Positions 366 through 59,160 of a stretch of 64,000 nucleotides of DNA are shown piece by piece. Location of the stretch: positions 98,527 through 162,526 of the forward strand of contig JAZDPX010000033.1 in the NCBI GenBank assembly GCA_043797125.1. Direction: 5' to 3'. This DNA comes from Candidatus Omnitrophota bacterium. Lineage in GTDB: Bacteria; Omnitrophota; Gorgyraeia; JABMRG01; JAFGKX01. The notes under the pieces were generated by a model that saw only the letters and a program-made list of their open reading frames with translations, ran no database searches and was not told the origin of the DNA. Position 1 is the first letter of the stretch, and every line of letters begins with the position of its first letter. A program made the position numbers and the translations under genes.

Positions 366-785
366 TTAAAACTGCTTCTCGTAACGCTCTATGTTTTCTT
401 GCGGAGTTTCTTTGGCAATCCAATATGTATTTGCCTTTTTGTTCCAATCTATATCCAAAAAACCTTTGCCGAATAATTTAGCTATCAAGCTTATGAGTGT
501 TAAAACCAAATAAAATAATGCGGTAAGAACCAGAAGCGTGGTAACCGCCATGATAACTTCTAAGGTTTTCTTGAGAACAATTTGAAGCGGCTTCAACGCA
601 ACCGGAGCAAAAATACCCAGAATAAAAATAACAGCGCTCACCGCGTAAAACCATGGATAGACATTCACGCGCCCCTTAAATAAATGCAGCGTGCCTATAA
701 TAGCCAATGCCGCTCCAAAAATAACTCCGAATTTTCGCAGTTCTTTCTTATTTGTTTCCATATTTCTCTCTATGCTATCGACCAT
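366..785 (-). CDS. Small polytopic membrane protein (3-4 TM helices) immediately downstream of a carbamoyltransferase; first codons lie in the heptamer array, so the true start is probably the internal Met (~761)
   Basis: 139-aa ORF with hydrophobic segments (GVIFGAALAIIGTLHLF, YAVSAVIFILGIFAPVAL, AVTTLLVLTALFYLVLTLISLIA). The small-membrane-protein-next-to-carbamoyltransferase arrangement recalls the saxitoxin sxtJ/sxtI pairing (analogy only). Confidence 0.45.
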   Translation of the reverse strand: MVDSIERNMETNKKELRKFGVIFGAALAIIGTLHLFKGRVNVYPWFYAVSAVIFILGIFAPVALKPLQIVLKKTLEVIMAVTTLLVLTALFYLVLTLISLIAKLFGKGFLDIDWNKKANTYWIAKETPQENIERYEKQF

Positions 786-813
786 CGACTATAGACCATA
801 GACTATAGACTAT
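776..813. repeat. Heptamer tandem array (gaccatc/gactata family), intergenic
   Basis: atcgaccatcgactatagaccatagactatagactatc. Confidence 0.9.
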
Positions 814-2709
814 CTAATCCGGTGCGATTTCACTTAAATCCCCTACTTTAATTTCTTCGGCGTTTTGTTCTTTCTTATTCAATAAATACGAACCCATTAT
901 AAGATAATCCATATTTGTGCGCATAAAACATTTATAAGCGTCCTCGGGAGTGCAACAAATAGGCTCTCCCCTTACATTAAAGGATGTGTTTATTACCAAA
1001 GGGCACCCTGTCAATTTATAAAAGGCGTTTATCATATCATAATATAAAGGGTTATCCTGCCGCTTTACAGTCTGCAGCCTAGCTGTATAATCGACATGTG
1101 TTATTGCCGGGACATTTGACCGTTTTACCTTAAGTTTATCAAGGCCCTTGAGCTTTTTGTCCTCTTCCTTACTCGGCAGCCGCTTCTCGTTTTTCACATC
1201 CGCTATTAAAAGCATGTACGGGCTTTCACATTCTAAATTAAAATACTCCTGCGCGTGGTCCAGCAAAACGCTCGGAGCAAACGGCCTGAATGATTCTCTG
1301 AATTTTATTTTAACATTCATTATGGTCTGCATGTCCTTGGAACGCGGATCGCCGAGTATGCTTCTTGAACCTAAGGCGCGCGGCCCGAATTCCATGCGCC
1401 CTTGAAACCAGCCAAGGACATTTTGAGCCGCTATAATCTCTGCGGCCTTTTGCGGTACAGCGGCGTTGGGCAATTTCACATGAGGTATATTTTTCCCTTT
1501 TAGGAATTCTTCGATCTGCTTATCTGAAAAGGACGGGCCTAAAAGCGTTGCCTTTTGCGAATCATTAGAGCCGTCGGCGTTTCTCTCCTTTGCGAGATAT
1601 ATATGCCATATTGCCAGCGCGGCACCTAAGGCTCCCCCCGCATCCGAGGCAGCGGGCTGTATCCATATCCTTTTAAAAGGGCTCTGGCGCAACAATTTTC
1701 CATTGGCAACACAATTTAGCGCAACGCCTCCGGCAAGACAAAGGTTTGTTTCTTTGGTCTGTTTATATACGTGGTTTGCCATTTTTAAGACCGCAGCTTC
1801 AGTCACGACTTGCACGGAACTGGCTAGATCCATATGTCTTTGTTCTATTTTTGCGTCAGGCTTTCTGGGAGGGCCGCCAAATAGCTCGTCAAATTTTCTG
1901 TTTGTCATAGTAAGGCCGGTGCAGTAATTAAAATATTTTAAATTAAGCTTCAGCGACCCGTCTTCTTTTAAATCTACGAGTTCTTTTAAAATCAAATCAA
2001 CATATTTTGGCTCTCCGTATGGCGCAAGGCCCATAAGCTTATATTCGCCTGAGTTGACTTTAAATCCGGTATAATAAGTAAATGCTGAATACAATAGCCC
2101 CAGCGAGTGCGGAAACCTTAATTCAGCGTGTATCTTTATTGTGTTTGCTTGTCCATTTCCATAACTAGCAGTAGCCCATTCGCCGACCCCGTCTATGGTC
2201 AAAATAGCTGCTCTTTTAAACGGTGACGGAAAAAACGCGCTTGACGCGTGAGACTCGTGATGCTCCGGAAACAAGATCTTGCCGTTAAATTGAAGCTGGC
2301 TTTCAATGTAATCTTTCAAGAAAAGTTTTTGTTTAATCCATGGGGGCATGGCCGTAAGAAAGGACCTTATGCCAAGCGGGGCAAAGGCAAGATACGTTTC
2401 AAGCAAGCGTTCAAATTTCACAAAAGGCTTATCGTAAAAGGCAACGTAGTCCATGCCGCGAGAATTTATCCCGGCCTGCTGCAGACAAAAATTGATTGAA
2501 TTAATAGGAAAGCTATAGTCGTGCTTGATCCTTGTAAAGCGTTCTTCCTGCGCAGCGGCTATTATTTCGCCATCTTTTAGGATAACGGCCGCCGCGTCAT
2601 GATAAAACGCTGATATGCCTAAAATATAGGTGGGTTTTTGTAGGCTCATGCTTAGTATTTCTATATGTGTAGTAGTTAAAATATTACTATATTTCGGTTG
2701 ATAGGTCAA
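814..2709 (-). CDS. Carbamoyltransferase, NodU/CmcH family
   Basis: 631 aa; N-terminal Kae1/HypF-like fold motif 'ILGISAFYHDAAAVILKDGEIIAAAQEERFTRIKHD' and C-terminal carbamoyltransferase domain. Confidence 0.85.
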   Translation of the reverse strand: MTYQPKYSNILTTTHIEILSMSLQKPTYILGISAFYHDAAAVILKDGEIIAAAQEERFTRIKHDYSFPINSINFCLQQAGINSRGMDYVAFYDKPFVKFERLLETYLAFAPLGIRSFLTAMPPWIKQKLFLKDYIESQLQFNGKILFPEHHESHASSAFFPSPFKRAAILTIDGVGEWATASYGNGQANTIKIHAELRFPHSLGLLYSAFTYYTGFKVNSGEYKLMGLAPYGEPKYVDLILKELVDLKEDGSLKLNLKYFNYCTGLTMTNRKFDELFGGPPRKPDAKIEQRHMDLASSVQVVTEAAVLKMANHVYKQTKETNLCLAGGVALNCVANGKLLRQSPFKRIWIQPAASDAGGALGAALAIWHIYLAKERNADGSNDSQKATLLGPSFSDKQIEEFLKGKNIPHVKLPNAAVPQKAAEIIAAQNVLGWFQGRMEFGPRALGSRSILGDPRSKDMQTIMNVKIKFRESFRPFAPSVLLDHAQEYFNLECESPYMLLIADVKNEKRLPSKEEDKKLKGLDKLKVKRSNVPAITHVDYTARLQTVKRQDNPLYYDMINAFYKLTGCPLVINTSFNVRGEPICCTPEDAYKCFMRTNMDYLIMGSYLLNKKEQNAEEIKVGDLSEIAPD

Positions 2710-2734
2710 GTTAAATACGCTTCACTTTTCTCCT

Positions 2735-2761
2735 TGCAATACAGGTTTTATATGATATAAT
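2735..2761 (+). promoter_or_regulatory. Putative sigma-70 promoter with extended -10 (ttgcaa ... TGaTATAAT); predicts a leaderless transcript for the 2771 ORF
   Basis: ttgcaa at 2735-2740; tgatataat at 2753-2761; ATG at 2771, about 9 nt after the -10 element. Confidence 0.4.
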
Positions 2762-2770
2762 TTCTGTGAA

Positions 2771-35634: not shown

Positions 35635-36576
35635 CTAATTTTTAAATTTAAACCATTCTATGGTCTTGGCCAAGCCTTCCTGCAGATTTACTACAGGCTG
35701 CCAGTTAAGCTTTTCTTTTGCTTTGCTTATATCAGGCCTTCTGATTTTCGGGTCATTTACCGGAAGCGTTTCGTATACTATTTTGCTTTTCGAGCCGGTT
35801 AGTTTAATAATTTTATCCGCCAGCTGCAATATAGTCATCTCCGCGGGGTTTCCTATGTTTACTGGCTCATTAAGTCCGGAATTCATTAGTTTATATATGC
35901 CTGCCACCATATCCGATATATAACAAAAACTTCTGGTTTGAGAACCGTCGCCGTAGACGGTAATAGCCGCGCCTTTTAAAGCCTGGTCGATGAAATTTGG
36001 TATGGCCCTTCCGTCGCTTTTTCGCATTCTCTCGCCGTAAGTGTTAAATATCCGGATTATCTTGGTATCTATTTTATGGACACGGTGATAAGCCAGGGTT
36101 ATCGCTTCCGCGAACCGCTTTGCTTCGTCATATACGCCGCGCGGGCCTGTCGGGTTTACGTTACCCCAATAGCTCTCCGGCTGGGGGCTAACTAATGGGT
36201 CGCCGTATACCTCGGATGTGGATGCCAGCAAAAATTTGGCTCTGTATTTCTTGGCAACCCCGAGGGCGTTATGCGTGCCTAAAGAACCGACCTTTAACGT
36301 CTTTATTGGATATTTTAAATAATCTACCGGCGACGCGGGCGAAGCGAAATGAAGGACATAATCAACTTTTTCTTTTAACCTTATTTCTTTGGTGACATCA
36401 TGCTTTATGAATTTAAAGTTTTTATCTCCCAAAAGGTGCTTTATGTTTTTTTTGCTGCCGGTTACCAGGCTGTCCATGCACATTATTTTGTGGCCTTTTT
36501 TAATTAAAAAATCGCATAAGTGCGAGCCGATGAAACCGGCGCCTCCGGTAATGAGTATTTTCATGAAAAACTCCAT
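35635..36576 (-). CDS. UDP-glucuronate decarboxylase (UDP-xylose synthase)-like SDR
   Basis: '[20 protein letters not shown]...[19 protein letters not shown]...IFNTYGERM', typical of the UXS/ArnA-decarboxylase family. Confidence 0.75.
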
Positions 36577-36578
36577 CT

Positions 36579-36618
36579 TGGTTAATTGGTTAATTGGTTA
36601 ATTTGTTAATTGGTAACT
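36579..36618. repeat. Left arm of composite repeat (ttaattgg tandem array) flanking the four-helix-bundle gene
   Basis: ttggttaattggttaattggttaatttgttaattggtaact. Confidence 0.9.
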
Positions 36619-36989
36619 GATTCCAGCTTTTTGCCTTTAATATATTTAATGTAACCATTTAATTTTTTTAAAACCATATACCCTTCATGTTTAAGTTTTT
36701 CTATACAATCCGTATCTATATAACTTTCATCCACACAAATATTCAAATCATCAATTAGTTCTTCAAGAGATCCTCTAGACTGCCTTAAGAACTGTATATT
36801 TTCTTGATAATGATACCTTCCGTGTCCTTCAGCTATATTATTTGTTAACGATACTGCTGCTCTGCGCATTTGTCTAATTAGATTATACTCTTCTTCCTTG
36901 GGTAATTTATTTGTCAGCTTATAGATTTTCTTCCTATATTCTCGTGCTAGATTATAAGCATCCAATCTTTCAAAACTATATTCGTTCAT
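36606..36989 (-). CDS. Four-helix-bundle protein (23S rRNA intervening-sequence protein family; homologous to DGR Avd proteins)
   Basis: 'ERLDAYNLAREYRKKIYKLTNKLPKEEEYNLIRQMRRAAVSLTNNIAEGHGRYHYQENIQFLRQSRGSLEELIDDL'; the ORF caller used a TTG at 37010 inside the repeat, the ATG at 36989 is more likely. Confidence 0.85.
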   Translation of the reverse strand: MNEYSFERLDAYNLAREYRKKIYKLTNKLPKEEEYNLIRQMRRAAVSLTNNIAEGHGRYHYQENIQFLRQSRGSLEELIDDLNICVDESYIDTDCIEKLKHEGYMVLKKLNGYIKYIKGKKLESVTN

Positions 36990-36995
36990 TTTCTG

Positions 36996-37041
36996 CTCAC
37001 CACTCACCAATTAACCAATTAACCACTCACCAATTAACCAG
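36996..37041. repeat. Right arm of composite repeat (cactcac / ccaattaa arrays), reverse-complement-like to the left arm
   Basis: ctcaccactcaccaattaaccaattaaccactcaccaattaacca. Confidence 0.9.
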
Positions 37042-37043
37042 AC

Positions 37044-38114
37044 TCAATTTTTTATCTTTAAACTCGTGAACACCCCGAAATCCGGCGCTGCGCCGTTTGT
37101 ATTCTCATCAATGGCAATCTGCCAGGAAATTTTATCATTAAAATTATGATTAAAACCCAATGTCAAAACGCCGGGATCATGGTCTGTGGCCGGAACTCCT
37201 CCGTCATATACTGTCGTATTAGCCGTAAACTGAAAAAGCATTGAAGTCTTATCCGTCAAAAAATATTCAAGGCCCAAAGCACCGTGCAGCATTTCTTTCT
37301 TAAATACATCTAAATTACTTAATATGTCAGGCTTATCAACAAAAATATAATTCATGTTTAAGAATACAAAGAACCTTTTAAATAAACTTTTATCGAGTAA
37401 TATTCCTGCGGCATAATCAAATTTTTTACTTCCCAATAATTCATCTTTGGCAGTAGGAAATTTCACAGCTGCCCGTAAAGAAGCTGTGGGAACCCACTTA
37501 TTTTCATCTAATATTTTATATTTTAGGTATGCGGAAACCTCGCCAAAATCATTCGCCTCTGAAGTGCTAAAAATATAAGGGTTTCCCTTGTTTCTTATTT
37601 CGTATTCATAATTGTATTTTTCTGTTTCTTCTCTCGCGTTGGGAGTTTTTATAAATGAAAAAGAACGTTCAAAATTTTCAATAAAGCTGTCAAGGTAGCC
37701 TCCCGAAAAAATATAGTATGGCATATCGAGACTGATTTCCATATCATCCAAAATTCCGTATGAAAGGTTTGCGTCTACTCTATTTACCTCGGTGTCTACA
37801 TAAACCCACCATTCCCTATCCTTTTCGGTAACGCCACCAAACTGCTGCCCGGGCCAGGGCCTCTGATGTACTACGATATTGGAAACATGGTAAGAAGCGT
37901 CGACTCTTATCTTGCCCTTTTTTAGGGTTTGCGCCTTATCTAGTGTTGGCGACATATAAAATAAATATAGAGGCATCTGGTTGCGCACGTTCAGGGGGCC
38001 TACGGCTTGGTATTTGTTTTCTTCAGCAAAAATAGCTGTGGGCTGTGAGCTGTGGGCTGTGAGCAAAAATACAAAAAAGGCAACTATGGTTGAAATTTTA
38101 TTTTTCATATGCAT
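37044..38114 (-). CDS. Secreted hypothetical protein, possible outer-membrane beta-barrel; N-terminus carries a 14-nt tandem duplication
   Basis: Signal peptide 'KISTIVAFFVFLLTAHS'; alternating hydrophobic pattern; duplication agctgtgggctgtg x2 at 38034-38061. Confidence 0.4.
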   Translation of the reverse strand: MHMKNKISTIVAFFVFLLTAHSSQPTAIFAEENKYQAVGPLNVRNQMPLYLFYMSPTLDKAQTLKKGKIRVDASYHVSNIVVHQRPWPGQQFGGVTEKDREWWVYVDTEVNRVDANLSYGILDDMEISLDMPYYIFSGGYLDSFIENFERSFSFIKTPNAREETEKYNYEYEIRNKGNPYIFSTSEANDFGEVSAYLKYKILDENKWVPTASLRAAVKFPTAKDELLGSKKFDYAAGILLDKSLFKRFFVFLNMNYIFVDKPDILSNLDVFKKEMLHGALGLEYFLTDKTSMLFQFTANTTVYDGGVPATDHDPGVLTLGFNHNFNDKISWQIAIDENTNGAAPDFGVFTSLKIKN

Positions 38115-40389: not shown

Positions 40390-41336
40390 AGATTCTTTTT
40401 CCTTTCTCTTAAATACCTTGTTAAAGCATCTTTCCAGTCTGCTAAACTGCTGCCATGTATTTTGAAAAAAAGTGTATTATCCAATATTGACATCTTCGGC
40501 CTTTTTGCCGGCCTGTCTAGTTGGTCCGATGATATAGGAATAACTTTTATATCCTCTTTACCTGCCTGGTTAACAATCTCTTTTGCGAACTCATACCACG
40601 AGCATGAGCCGGAGTTGGTAACATTTAGAATGCGGCTATTGGTTAATTGGTTAGTAGTTAATTGGTAACTGTCTACAATATCCGCTATCGCCTTTGCTAA
40701 ATCAACTGCATACGTCGGCGAACCAACCTGGTCATTCACAACTTTTATCCGCTTCTGCGTTTTAGCTTTCTCCAATATCGCTTCTACAAAATTCCTGCCT
40801 CCGGCCCCAAACAGCCAGCTTGTCCTTATGATTAAATAATTATCCAATTCACCCCTGACGGCATTTTCGCCTGCGAGTTTGGTTTTTCCATAAATGCTTA
40901 TCGGGTTTGGCATATCCTGTTCGCTGTAGGGCGAGGCCTTCTCTCCGTCGAAAACAAAATCAGTGCTTATGTATATCATGGACGAAGAGGCGAGTTTGCA
41001 CCCTTCTGCTATTATGGCTGTAGCTTGCGTATTTAGGTTGTGAGCTTTTTCAGGATTTAGCTCGCAGCCGTCAACATCGGTATATGCGGCGCAGTGGATT
41101 GTGATGTCGGGGCTTATCTGTTTGATTTTTTGCAGCGCCAAAACTCTGTCAGTTAGGTCAAGTTTGTGAAAAGCTGTTGGCTTTGGGCTACCTGCCCCGC
41201 ACCTGAACGAAGTGAATGGTGCGGGGTGGGCTATGGGCTCCCTAACATCAATCCCGACAACTTCATGCTCAGGCGCTAATTTTCTGCACAACGCCTGACC
41301 CAACATGCCGCTTGAACCAGTAATAAGTACTCTCAT
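40386..41336 (-). CDS. rfbD: dTDP-4-dehydrorhamnose reductase (RfbD/RmlD) carrying two in-frame insertions
   Basis: 'MRVLITGSSGMLGQAL...' N-term; 'RPAKRPKMSILDN' C-term. Insert 1 is a GC-rich hairpin ccccgcacc/ggtgcgggg at 41195-41226; insert 2 is the ttaattgg-family repeat at 40639-40671. Confidence 0.75.
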   Translation of the reverse strand: MRVLITGSSGMLGQALCRKLAPEHEVVGIDVREPIAHPAPFTSFRCGAGSPKPTAFHKLDLTDRVLALQKIKQISPDITIHCAAYTDVDGCELNPEKAHNLNTQATAIIAEGCKLASSSMIYISTDFVFDGEKASPYSEQDMPNPISIYGKTKLAGENAVRGELDNYLIIRTSWLFGAGGRNFVEAILEKAKTQKRIKVVNDQVGSPTYAVDLAKAIADIVDSYQLTTNQLTNSRILNVTNSGSCSWYEFAKEIVNQAGKEDIKVIPISSDQLDRPAKRPKMSILDNTLFFKIHGSSLADWKDALTRYLRERKKNL

Positions 41337-41350
41337 AGAATCGTTATGAT

Positions 41351-41432
41351 TTGGTTAATTAGTTAATTGGTTAATTAGTTAATTAACCACTCACCAATTA
41401 ACCACTCACTAACTTCACCACTCAATTATCCT
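41351..41432. repeat. Composite palindromic repeat unit (ttaattgg/ttaattag array, core gttaattaacc, cactcac array); 'empty' copy
   Basis: ttggttaattagttaattggttaattagttaattaaccactcaccaattaaccactcactaacttcaccactc. Confidence 0.9.
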
Positions 41433-42407
41433 CGCTCTTTGCTTCAACGGCTTCCACCACCGGCTGTTATTCTTATACCAGCCTATTGTCAAATCCAGGC
41501 CCTCATTAAACGAATACTTCGGCCTCCAGCCCAACTTTTTAATTTTACCGGAATCAAGCGCGTAACGCCTGTCATGCCCAGGCCTATCGGTTACAAATTT
41601 TATATAGCTATCCCTAAGGCGCAGTTTCTTTAAAAGGGCCCCTGCCATATCAATATTGCGTATTTGGGTCCTGGTGCCTATATTGTAAATTTCGCCAATT
41701 TTCCCATTTTTTAAAATACATTCTATGCCGCGGCAGTTATCCTCAACAAATAGCCAGTCGCGTATATTTTTGCCGTCGCCGTACAAAGGCAGTTTTTTGC
41801 CCCCAAGAAGATTGGTGATAAACAACGGCATCACCTTTTCCGGATACTGATAGGGGCCGAAGTTGTTTGAGCTTCTTGCTATTACAACCGGTAATCCAAA
41901 TGTATGATAATAACTAAGGCATAATAAATCAGCTGCTGCTTTTGACGCTGCATACGGAGAATTAGGCAAAAGCGCGTCTGTCTCTTTTGAAAAACCTGAT
42001 TTTATGTCTCCGTACACTTCATCTGTCGAGATCTGCATGAATTTTTTTATTTTGTATTTTCTGGCTGCCTCAAGAAGAACCCTTGCGCCTTCGATATTTG
42101 TTTTTATAAAAGCCCCGGCGTCTTTAATCGAGCGGTCCACATGCGTCTCTGCCGCGAAATTAATTATGGTCGATGGTCGATGGCCAATGGTCGATAGTAA
42201 ATTATTCACTAATTTTGAATCGCAAATATCGCCTTTTACGAATTTATAGCGTTTATCACTTTTGGTATCTCTTAAATTGTTTAGGTTGCCAGCATAAGTG
42301 AGCTTATCAAGATTTATGATTTTAATATCCCTATATTTTTTAAGCATGTATCGAATGAAATTGGACCCGATAAACCCGCATCCTCCGGTTACTAATATAT
42401 TTTTCAT
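41415..42407 (-). CDS. rfbB: dTDP-glucose 4,6-dehydratase (RfbB/RmlB) with an in-frame heptamer-array insertion
   Basis: 'ILVTGGCGFIGSNFIRYML...FAAETHVDRSI...YAASKAAADLL'; array ggtcgatggtcgatggccaatggtcgat at 42168-42195 encodes 'STIGHRPSTI'. Confidence 0.9.
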   Translation of the reverse strand: MKNILVTGGCGFIGSNFIRYMLKKYRDIKIINLDKLTYAGNLNNLRDTKSDKRYKFVKGDICDSKLVNNLLSTIGHRPSTIINFAAETHVDRSIKDAGAFIKTNIEGARVLLEAARKYKIKKFMQISTDEVYGDIKSGFSKETDALLPNSPYAASKAAADLLCLSYYHTFGLPVVIARSSNNFGPYQYPEKVMPLFITNLLGGKKLPLYGDGKNIRDWLFVEDNCRGIECILKNGKIGEIYNIGTRTQIRNIDMAGALLKKLRLRDSYIKFVTDRPGHDRRYALDSGKIKKLGWRPKYSFNEGLDLTIGWYKNNSRWWKPLKQRARIIEW

Positions 42408-42417
42408 CTTTTTACCA

Positions 42418-42445
42418 CAGACTATAGACTATTGACTATAGACCC
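42418..42445. repeat. Heptamer tandem array (gactata family), intergenic between rfbB and degT
   Basis: cagactatagactattgactatagaccc. Confidence 0.9.
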
Positions 42446-43570
42446 TGCGGCCTCCTTTATTACTTTAATCACATGCCCCATCTGCTTCCTGCCAAGCTCC
42501 GGATACACGGGTATAACAAAAGTTCCTTTAGAACAATTCTCCGCTTCCGGAAAATCTCTCTTCTTATATCCTAAATACTTAAAACAAGGCTGAAGATGCA
42601 AGGGCACAGGATAAAATGTCCTTGAATCTATGCCCTTGCCAATAAGATATGCTCTTATCTTTTCTTTGTTTTCCGTTGCCCTTAAGACATACTGGTGATA
42701 TATGTGGGTATTGCCCTTGGCAACATATGGCGTAATAAGACTTAAATCTCTTAAAGCGCTATTATAATAAGCTGCGTTTTGCGCGCGCTTTTTATTCCAT
42801 TTATCTATGTGTTTTAATTTCACCCTTAAGACAGCTGCTTGAATGGAATCCATCCTGTGATTATGTCCTATGCGCAAGTGCACATATTTATCTTGCGGCG
42901 AAGCGCCCTGATTTCTTAGTAATTGTAATTCTTCTGCAATGGCCTTATTATTAGTAACTATACAACCCGCGTCGCCAAACGCGCCTAAGTTTTTACCGGG
43001 ATAAAAACTTACAGTCCCGCAATCGCCTATTGTGCCTGCCTTTTTACCTTTCTGGCTTGCGCCGAAACTCTGAGCAGTATCTTCTATAACTTTCAAATTA
43101 TTCTTTTTTGCAATCTTCATTATCGCATCCATATCAGCGCACTGGCCGTATAGGTGGACTGGGATTATGGCCTTTATAGTATTGAGTATTGAGTATTGAG
43201 TATTGAGTAAAATCTTTTCGATGGAATCGATAGAAATGTTATAGGTTTTAGCGTCGATGTCCGCAAAAACAGGCACAGCCCCGATAGCCGCCACTGCGCC
43301 TGCGGTCGCGTAATATGTAAAAACCGGGCAAATAACTCCGTCGCCCTCTTTTATGCCTAATGCCTTAAGCGCAAGAAAAATAGCGTCTGTGCCGTTTGAG
43401 ACTGCGACTGCATATTTTACCTTGCAATAGGCGGCTATTTCTTTCTCAAGAAGCCTGACTTCTTCTCCAAGTATAAAACTGCCTGAATCAATAACTCTCT
43501 TTACAGCAGAGTCTATTTTCTCTCTAATAGGCTTTGTCTGCGTTTCCATATCCAACAATGGTATCTTCAT
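42422..43570 (-). CDS. DegT/DnrJ/EryC1/StrS-family PLP-dependent sugar aminotransferase (WbpE-like) with in-frame (gtattga)x4 repeat
   Basis: '...AIIPVHLYGQCADMD...' and an active-site Lys region; repeat at 43179-43206 encodes 'NTQYSILNT'. Confidence 0.9.
   Translation of the reverse strand: MKIPLLDMETQTKPIREKIDSAVKRVIDSGSFILGEEVRLLEKEIAAYCKVKYAVAVSNGTDAIFLALKALGIKEGDGVICPVFTYYATAGAVAAIGAVPVFADIDAKTYNISIDSIEKILLNTQYSILNTIKAIIPVHLYGQCADMDAIMKIAKKNNLKVIEDTAQSFGASQKGKKAGTIGDCGTVSFYPGKNLGAFGDAGCIVTNNKAIAEELQLLRNQGASPQDKYVHLRIGHNHRMDSIQAAVLRVKLKHIDKWNKKRAQNAAYYNSALRDLSLITPYVAKGNTHIYHQYVLRATENKEKIRAYLIGKGIDSRTFYPVPLHLQPCFKYLGYKKRDFPEAENCSKGTFVIPVYPELGRKQMGHVIKVIKEAAGSIVNSL
43179..43206. repeat. 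Perfect heptanucleotide tandem repeat (gtattga)x4 inside the degT-like CDS
   Basis: tagtattgagtattgagtattgagtattgagtaa. Confidence 0.9.
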
Positions 43571-44305
43571 TCTGTTGCCTTTCTTGCCACAAGATTATTT
43601 GCTCTAAGAAGGGAATCAAAAGTCCCTGAATCGGTCCAAAAACCATTCAGCTTATCATAGCTCATCTGGCCCAGGTTTATATATTTGTTATTTACATCCG
43701 TAATTTCCAGTTCGCCTCTTTTAGAGGGTTTGAGTGTTTTTATGATATCGAATACCTTCTTATCATACATATAAATCCCCGTAACGATAAAATTGGTGAG
43801 CGGCCTTTTGGGCTTTTCCGTGATATTCAATATTTTACCGTTTTTAAACTCAACCACGCCGAAACGCCCGGGATCAGGCACTTCCTTTATCAATATCCTG
43901 GCGCCATTTTTTTGACTTCGAAATTTATTCACCGAAGCCTTTATAGACTCCTCGACTATGTTATCGCCGAGGATTACCACTATCTTGCCGCCGTCGGCAA
44001 AGTCCTGCGCCAGGCGAAGCGCGTCCGCTATGCCGCCTTCCCCTTTCTGATAAGTATATTCGATGTGCTTTAATCCGAATTCTTTGCCGCTTCCTAAAAG
44101 CCGCAGGAAATCCCCGGCATTATTTCCGCCCGTAACAATTAATATTTCCGTTATTCCAGCATCAACTAAGGTTTGAATAGGATAGTATATCATCGGCTTG
44201 TTGTAAACTTAGCTAATGCAAAAGGTGTTTGTTACAAACCGTAGTTAAAGGATAAAGTCTCGAACCTAATCCTCCACATAAAATAACACCTTTTGTCATT
44301 GGCAT
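43567..44305 (-). pseudogene. rfbA: Glucose-1-phosphate thymidylyltransferase (RfbA/RmlA) disrupted near codon 30 by a 7-nt insertion giving TAG/TAA stops and a frameshift
   Basis: Upstream frame 'MPMTKGVILCGGLGSRLYPLTTVCNKHLLH*' (GGGGGTG SD before ATG at 44305); frame +1 continues '*VYNKPMIYYPIQTL...'; an intact gene would read HLLP-VYNKPM, and 'cattagctaa' replaces a single codon. Confidence 0.7.
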
Positions 44306-44314
44306 CACCCCCTT

Positions 44315-45340
44315 TTATTTTGAAACTTGCTTTTTAAACCTTTTAGTATCCGCAAGTTTCTTTATTTTTTGAAATAGAATAAATTTACGCGGTAAATAAA
44401 CGTCTGTCGATCTTAGGCCTCCATAAATAAAATTCCCTAATTTCACTGTATCCTCAAATCCATATCTTAATTCAAAACAGTTTGGCGTTCGTTTATAGAT
44501 AGTCCCCCGCCGTGTAGGCATTATATTGTGCATCCATTTTAGCACTTCATAGTTAGAGCTGGTAACCATAGATTTATAAATATCATTGCTGACATGATAT
44601 GCAAAGCAACCATCTCCATCAAAATATCCTCTTACAAAATCATGATAAATATTTTTTGGCATATTTAATGGATATAACCTTAAAGGCTTCTTTGGGATTA
44701 CCCCCAATTTTAATAAATCATTGTTTATCTCGTTAGAGCTGAATTCCAATCTAAAATATTTGCCATTTTCGTAACTTCTTATAGGTTTATTGCTTTGAAA
44801 AACTAAATTTATCTTTTCTAACAAAACTTTGTCCTTTGTGGCAAACATCAATTTTCCTTCCCTGCTTACACAACCATCAGCACAAATGTACCCAAGTAAA
44901 TATGCGGTTTTGCTATTAAGGGATTTAAATATATCTCTGCTATAGTTATAAATACGATTATAGCTGCGGCCTTTCATCTTTCTGCTGTGCTCCCTTTTGC
45001 CCCTTTCTGCCTGCATGTAAAATTTACCTTTTTGTGCCGCTATAATAGCCGCCTGCTTTCTGCTTCTCAATTTTATATTCCGTTGCCTTAAGCATCTTTT
45101 GATTCTATTAACGCTATAACCTGACGTTCTTGAAATTTCAGATAATGAAAATTTCCTTTTCACATACAAGTAGACTATTTTATTAATATTGCTGCTTTTT
45201 CTTCTGTTGTGGCCAATAATATACTTTTTACTTAGTCCAACATCTTTATTGCAACCACATGCGCAACTATGGACGCTATAACTCTTTTCCTGTTTTTTAA
45301 TTTTTCCTCCAGTCATAATCAATATCGTTATCAAACGCAT
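44315..45340 (-). mobile_element. Free-standing double-motif LAGLIDADG homing-endonuclease gene between rfbC and rfbA
   Basis: Two dodecapeptide motifs 'AYLLGYICADGCVS' and 'FVRGYFDGDGCFAY'; Cys cluster 'HSCACGCNKD' and basic HTH-like N-terminal region; overlaps the rfbC start by 44 nt. Confidence 0.75.
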
Positions 45341-45746: not shown

Positions 45747-45759
45747 TTTATAACCTCCT

Positions 45760-45794
45760 CAACTATCGACCATCGACTATTGACTATCAACTAT
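45760..45794. repeat. Heptamer tandem array, intergenic rfbC/ugd
   Basis: caactatcgaccatcgactattgactatcaactat. Confidence 0.9.
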
Positions 45795-47109: not shown

Positions 47110-49317
47110 CTATTGCTTATTTGTTTGAGAGCCTATCTTAGGCTCGTGGTAGCTTCTTCCGAATCTAAACGGCAAATTAGGAAACTCCTTTAATCTGAAA
47201 ACAACTAAGATCTCCTCGCCTCTTTCCCTGAACACATTATAATGTATATCGACTTCCCAGCAGTGCAGGTCGCGGGTAATAACGTATCTTTGCTCCCTTA
47301 AATCATATACATATTTATTGTCGTTTACAATTCTCTTAAAATCGAAATTTTCATATGCCTTTATCTTCCATTGGGGATTTATGCGCCATTCGACCTGCCC
47401 TATTATATCATTTGACTCGACAACGTAGCTATGCGACAAACCGAAAGAAAAATCTTTAACCGTTGCCACAAAATCCGTATTTATATACTTAAGCCATTCA
47501 TGATCGCGCCTTTTGTGAGGATCCATCGCGGCCTCGGATGTTATTGTCAGCCAATTGTAAGGCCTCATTTCAAGCTCTGCTAAATAATCCAAGAGCTGAC
47601 CTCCCGGAGTTTGCTTAAAGTCATATTGCGTGTCAAGGCCAAGCCTCACAAAATCAATCGACTCCTGATTTTGCCCTCTTTTGGTCTGTAGTTTGTTTTC
47701 CAAGGAAAACCCAATCGTGTTATTTCTGTCTATACTGTCGATCGAATCAAATCCAAATAGACTTTCCTTTCTTAATGTCGGCAATGGATTGTAATTATAG
47801 CTTACCCCAGGGGTAATTATGTGCCTTAGGCTGTTTATTTCTATACCGAGCGGAGAGCATTCGGCGTTAAACATCTTATAGAATTTGGTGTTTACATCCA
47901 CGCCTGTATAAAATATCCCCCTTGTATGCGAGGCGCTGCCAAAATCAGTTCCTGAAAGCCCCTGGTCATAGTAAGTTTCTCTAACAGCAGTATAAGGCGT
48001 AACATTAAGAAACGAAACCTTGCTGGCATAAGATAATTTATTGTATACATCAACGCGATTATTCTTATGCACGAGGGTATTAGCTACAGGATCTTCTATT
48101 GTGCTACTGGGATATTTCTTATTTAAATTTACAGCGCTGTATTCTCCGCTATAATAAAGCCTGCTGTCTCCTATGCGGTTATTATAAAGGTCTAATTTAA
48201 CCTCGGGCAGCCTCTCAACAGTTTCCTCGAACCTGTTCGCCCTTTTTTCAGTAAGAACGCTTAAATTATACAAGGGCTGCGTCTTGGTAATTAACAGATA
48301 AGATCTCGGGTGTTCTTCCTTTTCATATTCTTCGTAGAAGTAATCTTTTCTAAAATCCTTGTCTTTATATTTATACAATTCCGTAGTGGCAAGCGTATCA
48401 TTAAAGATCTGCCATTGGTGCCTCCACTGCGCAAGCACCTTTTCCTGCTCTTTTGTAGATTTGCTATCGCTTTGGGCAGAGTAAAGATGATCCCTGCCTA
48501 TGGCTCTTTCATGAGTATAGTATGTCTTTAGCGTTCCTTTGCCTATGAATTTGGTGTCATATATGTGGTCAAATCCGTAAGCAAAGTCCTTTTTTTCCCT
48601 GTGATCCAAATGCACGTAGCCTTTGTGATTAGGGTCAAGATTATAGCGCCATGCAGTCAACAGGTAAGCGCCCCATTCGCTGCTTTTTCCCGGTATTATC
48701 GTAACTCTCGGGCGGTTTTCATCCAAAGGATGCGCATAAACCGGCAGCCACAATACCGGAACAGACCCAACCCAGAACGTTGCGTCCTTTATAACTATCT
48801 TTACGTTTGGATATATCAATACCTTTTTGGCTGAAATTCTATAATGCGGATACTGGCGGTCGCATGTAGTAACATAGGCCTTGTTGACAATAAATTCATC
48901 CGGTTTTGTTTTTTGGGCGCACTCGCCTTTTGTGTGCCATGGTTTTGTATAACCGGTAAACCCTACCACGCTGCCTGTCTCCTTTTCAAAATTATATGTT
49001 ATCGTATCTCCGGTAAAAAAGTTCTCGCCCTGAACAAGCCTCACGTTGCCTTCGGCAATTGCTTCTTTGGTATCTGATTGAACCCTTACCTTATCGCAGG
49101 TAAGGGTGGCGTCTTTGTATTTTATAACTATATTGCCTGTGCCGACTACTTTGCCGTCTTTTTCAAAATACTCAACCTGGTCGCCGTTAACCTCAATAGG
49201 CCCTTCCATTTCTTCTGCCTGTGCAACCGCAGCAAAAAATAAAAAGAGCGCGGCAAAAGACAAAATAAATCTTTTACTTGTGACTTTGTGACCTGGTGAC
49301 CTGGTGACCTCTCTCAT
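47110..49317 (-). CDS. lptD: LPS-assembly protein LptD (OstA) homologue; N-terminal codons lie in an octamer repeat
   Basis: OstA-like N-terminal domain 'IEVNGDQVEYFEKDGKVVGTGNIVIKYKDATLTCDKVRVQSDTKEAIAEGNVRL...' plus a large C-terminal beta-barrel region; repeat gtgacctggtgacctggtgacct at 49279-49310. Confidence 0.7.
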   Translation of the reverse strand: MREVTRSPGHKVTSKRFILSFAALFLFFAAVAQAEEMEGPIEVNGDQVEYFEKDGKVVGTGNIVIKYKDATLTCDKVRVQSDTKEAIAEGNVRLVQGENFFTGDTITYNFEKETGSVVGFTGYTKPWHTKGECAQKTKPDEFIVNKAYVTTCDRQYPHYRISAKKVLIYPNVKIVIKDATFWVGSVPVLWLPVYAHPLDENRPRVTIIPGKSSEWGAYLLTAWRYNLDPNHKGYVHLDHREKKDFAYGFDHIYDTKFIGKGTLKTYYTHERAIGRDHLYSAQSDSKSTKEQEKVLAQWRHQWQIFNDTLATTELYKYKDKDFRKDYFYEEYEKEEHPRSYLLITKTQPLYNLSVLTEKRANRFEETVERLPEVKLDLYNNRIGDSRLYYSGEYSAVNLNKKYPSSTIEDPVANTLVHKNNRVDVYNKLSYASKVSFLNVTPYTAVRETYYDQGLSGTDFGSASHTRGIFYTGVDVNTKFYKMFNAECSPLGIEINSLRHIITPGVSYNYNPLPTLRKESLFGFDSIDSIDRNNTIGFSLENKLQTKRGQNQESIDFVRLGLDTQYDFKQTPGGQLLDYLAELEMRPYNWLTITSEAAMDPHKRRDHEWLKYINTDFVATVKDFSFGLSHSYVVESNDIIGQVEWRINPQWKIKAYENFDFKRIVNDNKYVYDLREQRYVITRDLHCWEVDIHYNVFRERGEEILVVFRLKEFPNLPFRFGRSYHEPKIGSQTNKQ

Positions 49318-53039: not shown

Positions 53040-53045
53040 AGAGAG

Positions 53046-53090
53046 TATAAAGTTTAAAGTGTTAAGTGTAAAGTCAAAAGCGTAAAGTTA
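53046..53090. repeat. Heptamer-periodic array (NNaaagt)x6, intergenic
   Basis: gtataaagtttaaagtgttaagtgtaaagtcaaaagcgtaaagtt. Confidence 0.8.
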
Positions 53091-55068: not shown

Positions 55069-55077
55069 GTTTGCGTG

Positions 55078-55710: not shown

Positions 55711-55809
55711 ATAATAATAGATACATTTAGTATAGGAGGTATAGTAGCATATCGGGGATAAAAGGCAAGGAAATTCTCTCAAATCCTATGTTAATTCTCA
55801 CTGTATCTA

Positions 55810-55964
55810 AAGCCTTTGCATGCCTTGCCTTCGCTTGTCACTCGCTCAGAGAATTTTTCGCCTTCGGCGAAAGGCGCTCTTCGCTCGTTGTGGCAAAAAT
55901 CGCTCACTAATCGCCGGGTTTTCGCGATTTTTGACAGTCGCTTCGGCAAAGCATGCAAAGGCTT
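55810..55964. repeat. GC-enriched element with nested inverted repeats (outer 14-bp perfect IR aagcctttgcatgc / gcatgcaaaggctt)
   Basis: Outer IR at 55810-55823 and 55951-55964; inner hairpins cgccttcggcgaaaggcg and caaaaatcgc...gcgatttttg. Confidence 0.7.
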
Positions 55965-56080
55965 CTTCTGCGCCTGTAAATTACCATAGGGATTCTCGTT
56001 CATGGCGGGAAAATATTTGTTTAACGGTGGGCAACAGCTAAATCTTCCGCTATTGTTTTTTCGGCAATGCCCAAAGGCTT

Positions 56081-56114
56081 ACCATAGACTATCGACTATT
56101 GACTATAGACTATT
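56081..56114. repeat. Heptamer tandem array downstream of the 1007-aa gene
   Basis: accatagactatcgactattgactatagactatt. Confidence 0.9.
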
Positions 56115-59114
56115 TTACGCTGCTGCGTCAACGGCTACGGTTAAATATCTGCCCCATTCCGGTATGTGTGGGGTAATATCAGCGGGGTTTTGGGTTATAT
56201 CTATGACTGTAACTTTACCTATTTTAAGCATGAACATCTGCCTAAGAGTTTGTTCTATCTCTTTAACATCTTTTGCTCTTTCGCTGCCTTTCTGACTTTC
56301 TAACAGAATCTTCATTTCAACTTTAATATTCTTTATCTCCTTTAACCCGTCAACCTCCATATCTCTGGTTGCTCGAATGACACCGGCAGGGCATTTAATA
56401 GTATAACTTTTTTCCGAAACGGTGATTTCTACTGATATCATTCTGTCTTCCCACCCCCTGATTGTATCTGTTAGTTTTGCCGTCATTAAAGAATACAGCG
56501 ACTCCCAATCTTCTGCTGTAAAATTTGCAATTACTTCTATGCCTTCGGGCTCCGATTCTTTGCTAATATCAGATATGCCTTTTATTTCCAGCGCATAGGA
56601 CTTCATGTATATTCTGAAAGCGTTGCGAAGATCTGTTTGAAATTGTTTCATGGATTTAATATCTTTTGCGAAATTTAAGCGGCCTGTTTCATTAAGTAAA
56701 ATTTTAAGTTCATGTTTAAATTTTTTCATGTCGTGCAAAGACAACATGGCATCACAAATTGCGCTATAGCTGTAGTCATCATCATCAATATCGAAAGATA
56801 TCCCACTGTTAAGAATAATTTTCATATCCATCCAATTTGACCATTTTTTGTATATTTCAATAAGGCTCCTTATCAAAACAGGCATTGTAAGCCCATCTGC
56901 CTTAAAATGTACAGTTGCCCCTTTCTCAAGGAACCTTTGCACATCCTGCTCGCCGACTGTCGCCGCCGCTGGCGGGCGAAGGGCGCTGGAGGCGATGGAT
57001 TGCTCTGCGGATTCCTCAAATTTTTTAAAAAGTTTTCTTAACCGGCGTAGAGAAGGGGCGTTTTCGTCATTATTTTTAGCGCCTTCTATTCTTGCATATT
57101 CTAAAGGCTTCACTATATTCCAGACTTTATAAATAGTAAGATCGTTATAGCTTTCACTTTTAAGAAGAGAGAGAATTTCATTTATATATTTTTCATTAAA
57201 CTCCAAGCTAAAAGGCAGGCGCATAATCCTATAAAGTAAATCGAGATTACCTTTTTCTTTAGAAGCAGGGATAATAAAATCTTGCAAGAATATTTTAGCT
57301 TTTTTAGCGCCGAATTTATCCTTTATGTCTGGCAGCTTTTCTAAAATAGCGTTAATTATGTTAACCCTGCATTTTTTATCAGAGCCGCGCTCTTTAAACG
57401 TAAATTGGTTACCTTTCCACATTAGCCTGTGAATCAGCTCATATGCCTCTGTTCTTCTGAGCTGCCTGGTGAGGATTTTAAAACCTTCCAGTTCTTTCCC
57501 AGCCAGTTTTTTCCCAGCTGGTTTTTTCCCAGCCGGTTTTTTCCCAGTGATAGTCTCACGATAAATTAGCTCATTTTTTGAAAGTAATGTTAAAAATTCA
57601 TTAAAATAATCTCTTCTACTTTCAAGTTTTTTTAACTTGCCTATCTCCACAAAAATGGAATCATCAACTATTGTCTCGCCCAAGTATTTGATTTCTACCT
57701 TCTTGCCGTCAATTTTCACCCATTGATACTCATCATCTATAATCGGCACACCCAGATACTTAAAGGCCTCTTTGAGAGTGGAATATCTTTCGACAGAAAC
57801 AACGCCGGCAACACCGTCAAGTTTTAAGCCATTCAACGTAATATGTATATCCACTGTGGGCATATGTTCTCTTAATTCATCAACAGGGCCTTCCTTTATT
57901 AAAAAGCTGTCAAAAATAACCGGTTTTTTGCCTTCCTCGGATTTTCTTATGGCGCGGGCAATATTCACTATAATGTGGCCGAGTATTCGCCTTTTCTTCT
58001 TATTCTCTATCTTATTGATAATATCATCCGTTATGTCTTTCATTATACCGGACAATATATTTTTGATTTCTTCGTCTTTTACCTTGCTAATCGCGACAGG
58101 CAATACAGCCTTAAGCTTATTCTCATTTGCCTGCTTGATTAATACCGGCAAAAATCGCTTGATAAAGATTGAAGGTGTTTTTTTAACTAATTGCAGTATT
58201 TTTTTTCCTAATTCTGTTTTGGATATTTCTATCGGCTCGTTTGGCAGGCTTCTTATGTCTAACCCAGAATCTGATTCAAGCAGCATTTTGCTAATTGAAG
58301 TGCCTCTTATCCACTTTTTAAACCTGCCTGCAGGCATTTTCTCGATTGCAGCCAGCAATATTTCTTTAACGCTGTCGGGAGGAAGTTTATTGATACTACT
58401 AATTGCAATCTTCTTAATTTCAGCAGGGGGGAGTTCATTAATAATATCCGGCAATATTTTTTTTGTCATATCCGCGGGAATATTTTTAAACACGCTGGGA
58501 AATAAGTTTGTTATCATATCGGACGGTATACTTTTGCCAACATCAGAGGCCTTGCCTTGCATAACGTTATCTGCATACTTAAGCAATTCAATGCATTCGA
58601 TGAGGATATATTCAACCTCTTCTTTTTTCGCTAATTTTTGTATTTCAAGAAGAGGCATTAATATGTACGCGACTTCTACAGGCCGCTGGTCTGCTAAAAC
58701 ACGAATGATTCCCAACGCATAATCATGAAAGATTTCCTGCTTATCGTCTTTTAGTATCAATATTATGGATTTCAGGAGTTTGCTTAATTTTTCCGGCGTA
58801 TCAAGTTTAGTGTTTGTAATCTCTTTTAATATATAGACTTTTTCATTAAAAGTATTTACATCTATGATATCTTCAGCGCCACGTGGTTTTTTAGCAAGTG
58901 TTTCAATATAATCGTTTAATTTTGCAGGAGAAATCTGATCTCTTTTCTCATATGGAATTTTCTCAAAATTATATTTGGCATAAAACTCCTGCCAAGTCAT
59001 CGTCTTTTCAAGTTCCATCTCCAGTTGCGTCTTATTCGCCATCGGGCGCAGGCAAAAGGCATTCGGGGGTACCGCTAATATTATCGCTATCGTTATCGCT
59101 GTTATTTTTCTCAT
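56115..59114 (-). CDS. Giant secreted/anchored hypothetical protein (about 1000 aa) with internal 'LPP...IKK' helical repeats and a (PAGKK)n tract; co-oriented 22 nt downstream of the sigma-fusion gene
   Basis: Start moved to Met9 (ATG 59114, AGGAAA SD); N-term 'MRKITAITIAIILAVPPNAFCLRPMA'; 'KKPAGKKPAGKKLAGKELEG' encoded by ttttttcccagcc(a/g)g x4 at 57493-57548. Confidence 0.5.
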   Translation of the reverse strand: MRKITAITIAIILAVPPNAFCLRPMANKTQLEMELEKTMTWQEFYAKYNFEKIPYEKRDQISPAKLNDYIETLAKKPRGAEDIIDVNTFNEKVYILKEITNTKLDTPEKLSKLLKSIILILKDDKQEIFHDYALGIIRVLADQRPVEVAYILMPLLEIQKLAKKEEVEYILIECIELLKYADNVMQGKASDVGKSIPSDMITNLFPSVFKNIPADMTKKILPDIINELPPAEIKKIAISSINKLPPDSVKEILLAAIEKMPAGRFKKWIRGTSISKMLLESDSGLDIRSLPNEPIEISKTELGKKILQLVKKTPSIFIKRFLPVLIKQANENKLKAVLPVAISKVKDEEIKNILSGIMKDITDDIINKIENKKKRRILGHIIVNIARAIRKSEEGKKPVIFDSFLIKEGPVDELREHMPTVDIHITLNGLKLDGVAGVVSVERYSTLKEAFKYLGVPIIDDEYQWVKIDGKKVEIKYLGETIVDDSIFVEIGKLKKLESRRDYFNEFLTLLSKNELIYRETITGKKPAGKKPAGKKLAGKELEGFKILTRQLRRTEAYELIHRLMWKGNQFTFKERGSDKKCRVNIINAILEKLPDIKDKFGAKKAKIFLQDFIIPASKEKGNLDLLYRIMRLPFSLEFNEKYINEILSLLKSESYNDLTIYKVWNIVKPLEYARIEGAKNNDENAPSLRRLRKLFKKFEESAEQSIASSALRPPAAATVGEQDVQRFLEKGATVHFKADGLTMPVLIRSLIEIYKKWSNWMDMKIILNSGISFDIDDDDYSYSAICDAMLSLHDMKKFKHELKILLNETGRLNFAKDIKSMKQFQTDLRNAFRIYMKSYALEIKGISDISKESEPEGIEVIANFTAEDWESLYSLMTAKLTDTIRGWEDRMISVEITVSEKSYTIKCPAGVIRATRDMEVDGLKEIKNIKVEMKILLESQKGSERAKDVKEIEQTLRQMFMLKIGKVTVIDITQNPADITPHIPEWGRYLTVAVDAAA

Positions 59115-59124
59115 ATTTTCCTGC

Positions 59125-59160
59125 CGACTATAGACCATCGACTATCGACCATAGACCACT
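59125..59160. repeat. Heptamer tandem array between the two giant genes
   Basis: cgactatagaccatcgactatcgaccatagaccact. Confidence 0.9.

Follow-up and report, generated by a model that had tools for sequence, protein, structure and literature searches.

Arrays of heptameric units repeated head to tail have been discussed for cyanobacteria, where they are called short tandemly repeated repetitive (STRR) sequences, for Beggiatoaceae and for some Bacteroidota. The unit of the cyanobacterial STRR2 is TT(G/T)GTCA. In Nostoc, heptamer repeats such as GAC(C/T)AAT are found upstream of recO, and reporter effects have been described for the repeats upstream of recO and recF (bioRxiv 10.1101/2022.06.06.494920). 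In marine Beggiatoaceae, the forward TAACTGA repeat contains stops in three frames and overlaps the upstream stop codon, and the reverse repeat occurs inside open reading frames (ORFs); the arrays, of 2-6 copies, stand directly upstream of start codons and have a patchy distribution that includes cyanobacteria and Bacteroidetes (MacGregor 2015; PMC4679880). Among the long simple sequence repeats (LSSRs) of prokaryotes, with units of 5-11 nucleotides (nt), heptanucleotides dominate, slippage has been proposed as their origin, and they are scattered sporadically over the phylogeny (Mrazek et al. 2007, as recounted in PMC4679880). The stretch of DNA analysed here, 64,000 nt of contig JAZDPX010000033.1 (assembly GCA_043797125.1, positions 98,527 to 162,526) from a bacterium of the uncultured phylum Omnitrophota, is called the window. 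It carries short tandem arrays of 7- and 8-nt units between and inside its genes, and these arrays probably extend the STRR-type heptamers to Omnitrophota, with the same placement rules, by which forward arrays rich in stops come at gene ends and arrays free of stops come in protein loops. A literature search found no paper linking Omnitrophota with such repeats.

The most likely account of the arrays, and a reasonably probable one, is that they are short tandem repeats of the STRR/LSSR type with a largely non-adaptive origin by slippage and subsequent selective filtering. The arrays were called with Tandem Repeats Finder (TRF), curated to a set of 16 and compared with 30 dinucleotide-preserving shuffles. 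The window contains 19 arrays of at least 24 nt with a period of 7, 8, 14, 15, 16 or 21, against a mean of 1.1 (maximum 3) in the shuffles; at a TRF score of at least 40, there are 20 arrays against 2.1. An earlier sequence-only reading of the window had noted pervasive 7-8-nt repeats, and these counts show that they exceed chance. Every array on its list was recovered by TRF, although that list holds six intergenic arrays and not the "at least seven" announced. Nine of the 16 curated arrays are mostly intergenic in a window of which 2.9% is intergenic after correction of gene starts (binomial P = 1.5e-10), and 8 of the 15 spacers of at least 20 nt contain an array. The arrays are about 25-45 nt long and consist of few units, about 3.6-5.6; most of them are imperfect.

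As in STRRs and LSSRs, the head-to-tail units of the 7-nt type exceed what composition would give, and a few families are spread over many, mainly intergenic loci. The recurrent families are A, T[A/G]GTCNA, with six sites in the window; B, TTAACCAA together with GGTGAGT, with five; D, CTTTANN; and, in addition, the unit CTCAATA. The second family had been overlooked by the sequence-only reading; it appears at 15-83, 36578-36614, 37006-37040 and 41351-41424, as the octamer TTGGTTAA together with the heptamer ACCACTC. An array in rmlD that had been taken for a relative of the gactata heptamers belongs to the family B octamers instead, and the array in rfbB is the gactata family, that is family A, in the opposite orientation.

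Outside the window, family A was searched for by an exact scan for four units (RGTCNAT x4) in one genome per species, for which about 0.3 chance matches are expected by our own estimate from the pattern and the database size. At least 120 genome stretches carry such an array. Among the matches listed, about 69 belong to Bacteroidota (Chitinophagaceae, Saprospiraceae, Mucilaginibacter, Bacteroidales, Flavobacteriaceae), about 25 to cyanobacteria (Nostoc, Anabaena, Calothrix, Fischerella, Aliinostoc, Westiellopsis), 4 stretches to three other Omnitrophota metagenome-assembled genomes and about 22 to other or unclassified organisms, with about ten further phyla represented; by crude ORF calls, 109 of the arrays on these stretches are intergenic and 22 inside ORFs. 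A likeness to cyanobacterial STRRs had been suggested from the window alone. It is now borne out by the exact four-unit arrays in Nostocales, and the cyanobacterial arrays continue into TAGTCAT units that resemble STRR2. Other Omnitrophota contigs carry arrays of the same style, with several 7-10-nt units of about 4-5 copies each, often as inverted pairs. Viral contigs of IMG/VR, giant-virus bins included, contain family A (T[A/G]GTCNA x4) at 42 stretches and family B (TTGGTTAA)x3 at 11, and thus these two unit types are not confined to cellular genomes.

The window shares with cyanobacterial STRRs the tandem heptamers, the mainly intergenic position, the numerous dispersed arrays and the family A unit itself. 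The cyanobacterial arrays, however, reach 9-13 units or more, against 3.6-5.6 in this omnitrophote, and the window combines several unrelated unit families within 64 kb with arrays inside conserved enzyme genes. The TAACTGA repeats of Beggiatoaceae follow the same placement rules, forward at gene ends and reverse in ORFs, and are likewise patchy in distribution, but in the window the unit sequence is another one, there are several families, a Shine-Dalgarno sequence usually follows the array, and the arrays inside ORFs occupy the core of housekeeping nucleotide-sugar enzymes and not the ends of proteins. Heptanucleotides, a presumed origin by slippage and a sporadic spread are shared with the LSSRs; Omnitrophota do not figure in that survey as far as it is recounted in PMC4679880.

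The arrays at gene junctions, read on the mRNA strand, start at the upstream stop codon or a few bases from it and finish 8-20 nt short of the next start; a ribosome-binding site of the GGAG, AGGA or GGAGG type is usually left intact. Their sense units contain stop codons (TAG in TAGTCNA, TAA in TTAACCAA, TGA in GGTGAGT), and three units at a period of 7 or 8 close all frames. Because 7 and 8 are not multiples of 3, a junction array closes three frames and can survive only after a gene end or as one. In two cases the array itself supplies the upstream stop, once as the DegT tail GSIVNSL followed by TAG and once as the TAA of a four-helix-bundle gene. All arrays described here are on the minus strand, which carries nearly all genes of the window, and each was called by TRF and checked in the sequence.

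Five of the junction arrays belong to family A. The direct array at 775..813 (T[A/G]GTC[T/G]A x5.6) begins 1 base past the TAG of a carbamoyltransferase gene (814-2709), and the likely start of the next cistron is the ATG at 763. The array at 45759..45794 stands between the TAA of a UDP-glucose-dehydrogenase-like gene and the GGAGG ribosome-binding site of the dTDP-sugar isomerase gene; that at 56084..56113 (x4.3) lies 2 nt past the TAA of a 1007-amino-acid (aa) ORF; and that at 59125..59158 (x4.7) separates the TAG of a 1195-aa sigma-domain gene from the 1007-aa ORF and its AGGA ribosome-binding site. The array at 42419..42443, 14 nt upstream of the rfbB start, forms the DegT C-terminal tail GSIVNSL and the TAG stop. 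The claim that the arrays sit precisely between genes fails for this one, which is mostly the 3' end of DegT. Family D is represented at 53044..53088 by CTTTANN x6.4, which fills the spacer between the ABC-ATPase and GGDEF genes.

Family B provides the remaining junction arrays. The composite hairpin at 15..83, on the mRNA strand (GGTGAGT)x3.6 followed by (TTAACCAA)x5.4, comes past the stop of a small membrane-protein ORF (91-255) and is followed, at the window edge, by a GGAG ribosome-binding site. Another composite hairpin, at 41351..41424, fills the spacer from rfbB to rmlD. The array at 37006..37040, with GGTTAATT and GGTGAGT units, is a 5' arm situated between the TGA of a DUF3187 gene and the start of the four-helix-bundle gene. 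Its partner is the 3' arm at 36578..36614, with ACCAATTA and ACAAATTA units, which overlaps the TAA of the four-helix-bundle gene and stops before the ribosome-binding site of the epimerase gene. The two arms pair with each other when folded.

Inside genes, the arrays consist of reverse or otherwise stop-free units, their total length preserves the frame, and the peptides that they encode fall in loops, an N-terminal tail or a signal peptide. Translation confirmed the in-frame position that had been assigned to the arrays in rfbB, DegT, rmlD (then called rfbD), the LptD-like gene and the DUF3187 gene. In rfbB, a reversed stop-free family A array, (CGACCAT)x4.3 at 42166..42195, encodes STIGHRPSTI. 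It lies at a helix-loop-strand boundary directly ahead of the INFAAETHVDR motif and adds only 2 aa relative to PDB 6bi4 in the alignment. Forward family A closes frames and abuts upstream stops, and the in-ORF rfbB copy is reversed, which is the orientation rule of STRR and TAACTGA repeats. The coding strand of DegT has a perfect (CTCAATA)x4.6 at 43178..43209. The peptide encoded by this array, LNTQYSILNT, falls in a variable loop that precedes the KAIIPVH strand. An ACTCAAT unit (peptide NTQYSI) is present both in this DegT array and in an epimerase gene of L001, one of the related contigs described below (L001 15480-15509). In rmlD (Pfam RmlD_sub_bind), a degenerate family B array at 40638..40666 encodes YQLTTNQLTNS, in a loop 2-4 aa longer than in the orthologs.

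The other two in-gene arrays are at the beginnings of envelope proteins. Right after the ATG of the LptD-like gene, which overlaps the stop of the ROK gene as ATGA, the octamers GGTCACCA/AGTCACAA are repeated 3.9 times (49280..49310). The encoded peptide, MREVTRSPGHKVTS, adds about 13 N-terminal residues that are missing from orthologs. In the signal peptide of the DUF3187 outer-membrane protein, a 14-mer (CTCACAGCCCACAG) is repeated 2.2 times at 38034..38064 and translates in frame into LTAHSSQPTA. The HSSQPT-coding 14-mer recurs in rfbB of another related contig (L004 1938-1964).

Relatives of the same operon show how these arrays turn over. Syntenic contigs, labelled L001 and so on, were obtained by exact-protein look-ups of DegT homologs. 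The window DegT is 100% identical to an NCBI protein (P0001) from a Candidatus Omnitrophota metagenome-assembled genome, and its next relatives are 60-74% identical and likewise from Omnitrophota; a metagenome scan with the window DegT returned only relatives of 39-50% identity and no strain-level partners of the window. Junction arrays are not conserved across lineages. L001, whose DegT is 68% identical, lacks them at the orthologous junctions; in L004 the DegT/rfbB junction carries an CGTTATAG array, and the orthologous junctions of L207 carry AACTTAC and GTAACCTTAT arrays. The in-ORF arrays, unlike the junction arrays, recur at the same codons with differing units. In DegT, the unit is CTCAATA in the window, CGCAATA in L005, CGAGATA in L220, CGCAGTA in L004 and a mixture of CGCAATA and CTCAATA in L207 and L217, and even the DegT of L152 (44% identity) has a GCCTCCA array in the same loop. 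In rfbB, it is CGACCAT in the window, CGACAGT in L001, CGAACTA in L005, GCAGGTT in L220 and a degenerate 14-mer in L004, with no array in L207 and L217. The DegT alleles of L218 (P0007) and L220 (P0005), 76% identical, contain 1.6 and 4.6 units, a difference of exactly 21 nt or 7 aa. Units homogenised within a lineage, together with length steps that preserve the frame, are a signature of slippage or conversion over evolutionary time. In L218, a contig of 2.3x coverage, rfbB breaks (2108-2790) at the codon where relatives have the heptamer array. The resulting 113-aa rfbB resembles an OFF allele, but the sequence leaves for unrelated DNA exactly at the array codon with no change in unit number, probably as a result of misassembly or of rearrangement at the repeat.

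The following course of events can be proposed. Slipped-strand mispairing or conversion within an array would create the arrays and keep their units homogeneous, and selection would merely filter where they persist. Stop-rich forward units would persist after gene ends or as gene ends, and stop-free versions only where the frame is kept and a loop, a tail or a signal peptide is encoded. Because selection would filter only persistence, arrays could fill whole intercistronic spacers and still be absent from orthologous junctions, or be replaced there by another family. Direct arrays in the operon mRNA might take on a secondary role as structure-free spacers leading from the stop codon to the next ribosome-binding site. 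Inverted arrays would form stable stem-loops, one arm pair enclosing the four-helix-bundle gene much as in a 23S rRNA intervening sequence. The in-frame arrays at fixed codons of two conserved enzymes are a clean natural series that might be used to determine rates of slippage and homogenisation.

Several points weigh against a largely non-adaptive origin. All five family A junction arrays share one orientation with respect to transcription, where a neutral element would be expected both ways; the one-strand layout of the genes also makes transcription inseparable from the direction of replication. Perfect arrays whose units are peculiar to each lineage, yet stand at the same codons, imply that homogenisation still goes on; if it runs by single-unit slippage, it would have to pass through frameshifted (OFF) intermediates, as contingency loci do. 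The unit shared by different genes, CTCAATA in the window DegT and ACTCAAT in the L001 epimerase, fits the insertion of a ready-made array better than local birth. Finally, the strain-level comparison presented below was made on assemblies of a relative.

The orientation of family A is one of the observations that might point to post-transcriptional control, in which the direct arrays would be mRNA binding or standby sites for a ribosomal or RNA-binding protein that set the translation of the downstream gene, the hairpins would set processing or stability, and the repeats together would mark a regulon. The arrays are immediately upstream of ribosome-binding sites, and family A is sense-oriented at 5 of 5 junctions. 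Families A and D are unstructured as RNA (z 0.7 to -1.7; z 0.0 for 775-813 and a fold of 0 kcal/mol for the family D array at 53044-53088), and the family B stems are significantly stable: the hairpin at 15-83 (fold region 5-100) has -27.1 kcal/mol and z -3.8, with 0 of 200 shuffles as stable, and that at 41351-41424 (fold region 41340-41425) has -28.1 kcal/mol and z -6.0. The arms around the four-helix-bundle gene change jointly between lineages with complementarity kept. A role of this type has been proposed for the TAACTGA repeats (PMC4679880), and the recO and recF reporter effects in Nostoc (bioRxiv 10.1101/2022.06.06.494920) are in line with it. Against these observations, the orthologous junctions of relatives have no arrays or unrelated units, and across phyla family A shows no orientation bias with respect to co-directional flanking genes (33 sense, 42 antisense among the matches listed). 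The genes 3' of the arrays share no function, and neither a candidate binding protein nor an Rfam match in the window was found. Regulation by the arrays is for these reasons considered unlikely, and recognition of the UAG-N4 repeats by an S1-, Csp-, CsrA- or HutP-like protein is a similarly doubtful proposition. The DegT/rfbB junction array pairs over a long range with the reversed rfbB array in the minimum-energy fold, yet its z is 0.25 against shuffles and the pairing was rejected.

Intercistronic hairpins are familiar from enterobacteria as repetitive extragenic palindromes and bacterial interspersed mosaic elements (REP/BIME), and 23S rRNA intervening sequences, which are processed by RNase III, can carry a PF05635 ORF. 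Both solo family B hairpins of the window resemble REP/BIME in being imperfect palindromes between cistrons with a stable fold; the window differs in that it encodes no REP-associated tyrosine transposase (RAYT, IS200/IS605-like) by Pfam and NCBIfam. The other two family B arrays, 37006-37040 and 36578-36614, pair around the four-helix-bundle gene (36606..36989, minus strand, 127 aa), a member of the PF05635/TIGR02436 family of 23S rRNA intervening-sequence proteins (Pfam 3.1e-30; TIGR02436 3.9e-29). The whole cassette has a z of -6.7, and the arm duplex reaches -58.4 kcal/mol, against -30.4 in shuffles (z -6.7). A PF05635/TIGR02436 ORF inside a long complementary stem, which is the arrangement of a 23S rRNA intervening sequence, is found in the window and in L207, L134, L139, L152 and L217. 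This cassette, however, lies between protein-coding cistrons of a nucleotide-sugar operon and not in 23S rRNA (Rfam found no rRNA in the window), and its stems are built of tandem 7-9-nt units that vary by lineage.

The cassette with its four-helix-bundle gene between inverted tandem arms recurs (window 36570-37050; L207 9540-9995; L217 4760-5240; L134 6219-6706; L139 2621-3360; L152 2800-3278) and deserves attention as such. In all six lineages inverted arms flank the gene, and each time the 5' arm is rich in purines or in G. The position of the gene changes: in L207 it occupies the rmlA/DegT junction and in L217 the rmlD/epimerase junction of the same operon, and in L134, L139 and L152 it lies near DegT. 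The arm units also vary by lineage, being a 9-mer AAAAGTTTA, a 7-mer GGTAAAG/CTTTACC, CAGATTA, GGGGTGCG and a 14-mer. That the stem is retained through changes of arm sequence speaks for a role of the stem as such, and by analogy with the processed rRNA intervening sequences it is predicted to be, probably, an RNase III-type processing or stability element. The arms of L139 and L140 seem to differ, but only through poly-G noise where a contig ends.

Because the gene occurs at different junctions of one conserved operon (window, L207, L217), and in all six cassettes between inverted arrays, the arrays might instead have been left by a mobile element, as the arms, empty sites or half-sites of a small cassette or as the products of a repeat-writing enzyme at insertion sites. 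Such an origin would explain the unit families shared by many loci and several phyla. The two solo hairpins match the cassette arms in units and polarity, and identical units occur in different genes of different lineages and on viral contigs. Nevertheless, there is no four-helix-bundle gene within 8 kb of the family A arrays at the 120 genome loci listed, nor at 53 viral loci; no transposase or reverse transcriptase is encoded beside the window arrays; and the in-ORF units track the native boundary codons, which points to a local origin. An origin of the arrays from a mobile element is therefore regarded as very unlikely. It is just as much of a long shot that the four-helix-bundle (Avd/23S-intervening-sequence-protein-like) gene and its arms form a mobile intervening sequence of operon mRNAs that hops between junctions and is cut out at the stem. 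If it did, it would have left the solo hairpins, and perhaps the direct arrays, as empty sites or half-sites, and the repeats would be the footprints of an undescribed element and not plain microsatellites.

The characterised tracts of contingency loci are usually much longer than 3.6-5.6 units. The sequence-only reading had proposed such loci here, with slipped-strand phase variation of surface glycan genes by repeats concentrated in polysaccharide and lipopolysaccharide genes, each gained or lost unit shifting the frame. In a narrower form, DegT, rfbB and the LptD-like gene would be turned off and on as their perfect in-ORF arrays gain or lose one 7- or 8-nt unit, and selection would keep the tracts repetitive. 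The unit is indeed not a triplet, the DegT tract is perfect (x4.6), arrays in several lineages occupy identical codons while each lineage has homogenised its units, DegT alleles of 1.6 and 4.6 units exist, and rmlA of the same operon is broken by exactly 7 inserted bases. Heptanucleotide tracts, such as that of HMW1A (PMC8262952), are reported to drive the phase variation of Haemophilus HMW adhesins (PMC8262952; PMC12721329). With the contingency loci of Haemophilus and Neisseria, the window shares a non-triplet unit inside envelope and glycan ORFs and slippage on an evolutionary scale.

The differences from contingency loci are that the window arrays are short and mostly intercistronic, that surface genes are not enriched for them and that no length variation is seen among strains of a relative. 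The frameshift argument holds by position for the five in-ORF arrays (DegT, rfbB, rmlD, LptD-like, DUF3187) and not for the ten junction arrays, where a change in unit number cannot shift a frame because the arrays are bounded by a stop on one side and by the next Shine-Dalgarno sequence or start on the other. No array is found in about 27 glycan genes at 4-35.6 kb, the array density of the non-glycan part (47-64 kb) is similar to that of the glycan part, and genes for GGDEF, ABC-ATPase and B12-binding proteins and for two giant proteins without assigned function have arrays next to them as well, so that the claimed concentration in surface genes does not stand. The comparison of strains that the sequence-only reading had called for was made in a related lineage on ten assembled contigs from ten samples with an identical DegT (P0038), at 98.7-100% identity and with at most 58-69 substitutions. 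None of the five arrays compared (two at junctions, two cassette arms and the in-ORF DegT array) changed in length or sequence across the ten. Two smaller strain sets also lack length changes, but they are 100% identical throughout and hence uninformative. No frameshifted DegT allele was found among the best 120 full-length or 25 short homologs, every allele being in frame; the short homologs, from a search with the N-terminal 121 aa, are all contig-end fragments or come from array-less lineages. The sequence-only reading had also suggested looking for single-unit variation in related genomes; the difference seen in DegT is one of exactly 3 units. In rmlA, the insertion is one unit without a tract.

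On the time scale examined, that of assemblies of a related lineage, the arrays do not behave as on/off switches, and phase variation of the glycan genes is not supported. That the arrays are contingency loci is highly improbable, and the chance of a low-rate switch at the perfect in-ORF arrays is likewise slim. A non-triplet repeat in a glycan locus should not be taken automatically for a phase-variation switch. Roles of the junction arrays as promoter spacers or terminators can be dismissed, since promoter-like sites are at chance level (60 against 50.4 +/- 6.5 in shuffles) and none of the terminator-like sites (25 against 18.8 +/- 4.1) is at an array.

The genes around the arrays were annotated with Pfam and NCBIfam. 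A single very large glycan locus spans about 0.8-47 kb of the window and contains carbamoyltransferases, glycosyltransferases, methyltransferases, radical-SAM enzymes, three asparagine-synthase-like genes, Wzm/Wzt and an O-antigen-ligase-like gene. Its nucleotide-sugar block comprises epimerases, UDP-glucose dehydrogenases, rmlD, rfbB, DegT, rmlA and the dTDP-sugar isomerase. Past the glycan locus are the LptD-like protein, the ROK kinase, two GGDEF proteins, the ABC ATPase, AccD, the B12-binding protein and the two giant proteins.

Two genes of the glycan locus are interrupted. In rmlA (44194-44314 together with 43567-44193), the first 28 codons (44299-44216) run into a TAG and the remainder is in another frame. 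Alignment with five orthologs places exactly 7 extra bases, TAGCTAA, between a His and a Val codon; the insertion is part of the palindrome TTAGCTAA, and its flanks are not duplicated. Possible readings of the split gene are a pseudogene, an OFF allele and a repair scar. Between it and the dTDP-sugar isomerase gene, a free-standing 341-aa ORF with a LAGLIDADG_3 homing-endonuclease domain occupies 44315-45340 and is missing from the syntenic loci L001, L207, L217 and L220. The asparagine-synthase-like gene at 31246-33042 is a single frame broken by one TGA, at 32659-32661, in place of the conserved Trp of the FAFA[IL]WD motif. Recoding of UGA was ruled out: as TGA is a normal stop in the window, terminating 16 of its 46 genes, the in-frame TGA is a nonsense mutation or a sequencing error.

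The 1195-aa protein (59161-62748) has a sigma-70-like domain confined to its C-terminal 300 residues and a long N-terminal part without assignment; its matches to RpoS/RpoD and to the MzaA anti-phage sigma factor are weak and all far under the curated cut-offs. Two long spacers contain repeats of other kinds. The spacer at 55783-56080 contains an imperfect palindrome of about 150 nt with the ends GCCTTTGCATGC and GCATGCAAAGGC, and that at 62749-63063 contains several GC-rich hairpins, for example GTAGGGGTTCGATTTATCGAACCC and GGGGCATTAAGCCCC. Within the 1007-aa ORF, at 57488-57547, a 15-nt unit is repeated 4 times and encodes GKKPA repeats; since its unit is a multiple of three, this repeat belongs to a different class from the 7/8-nt arrays.

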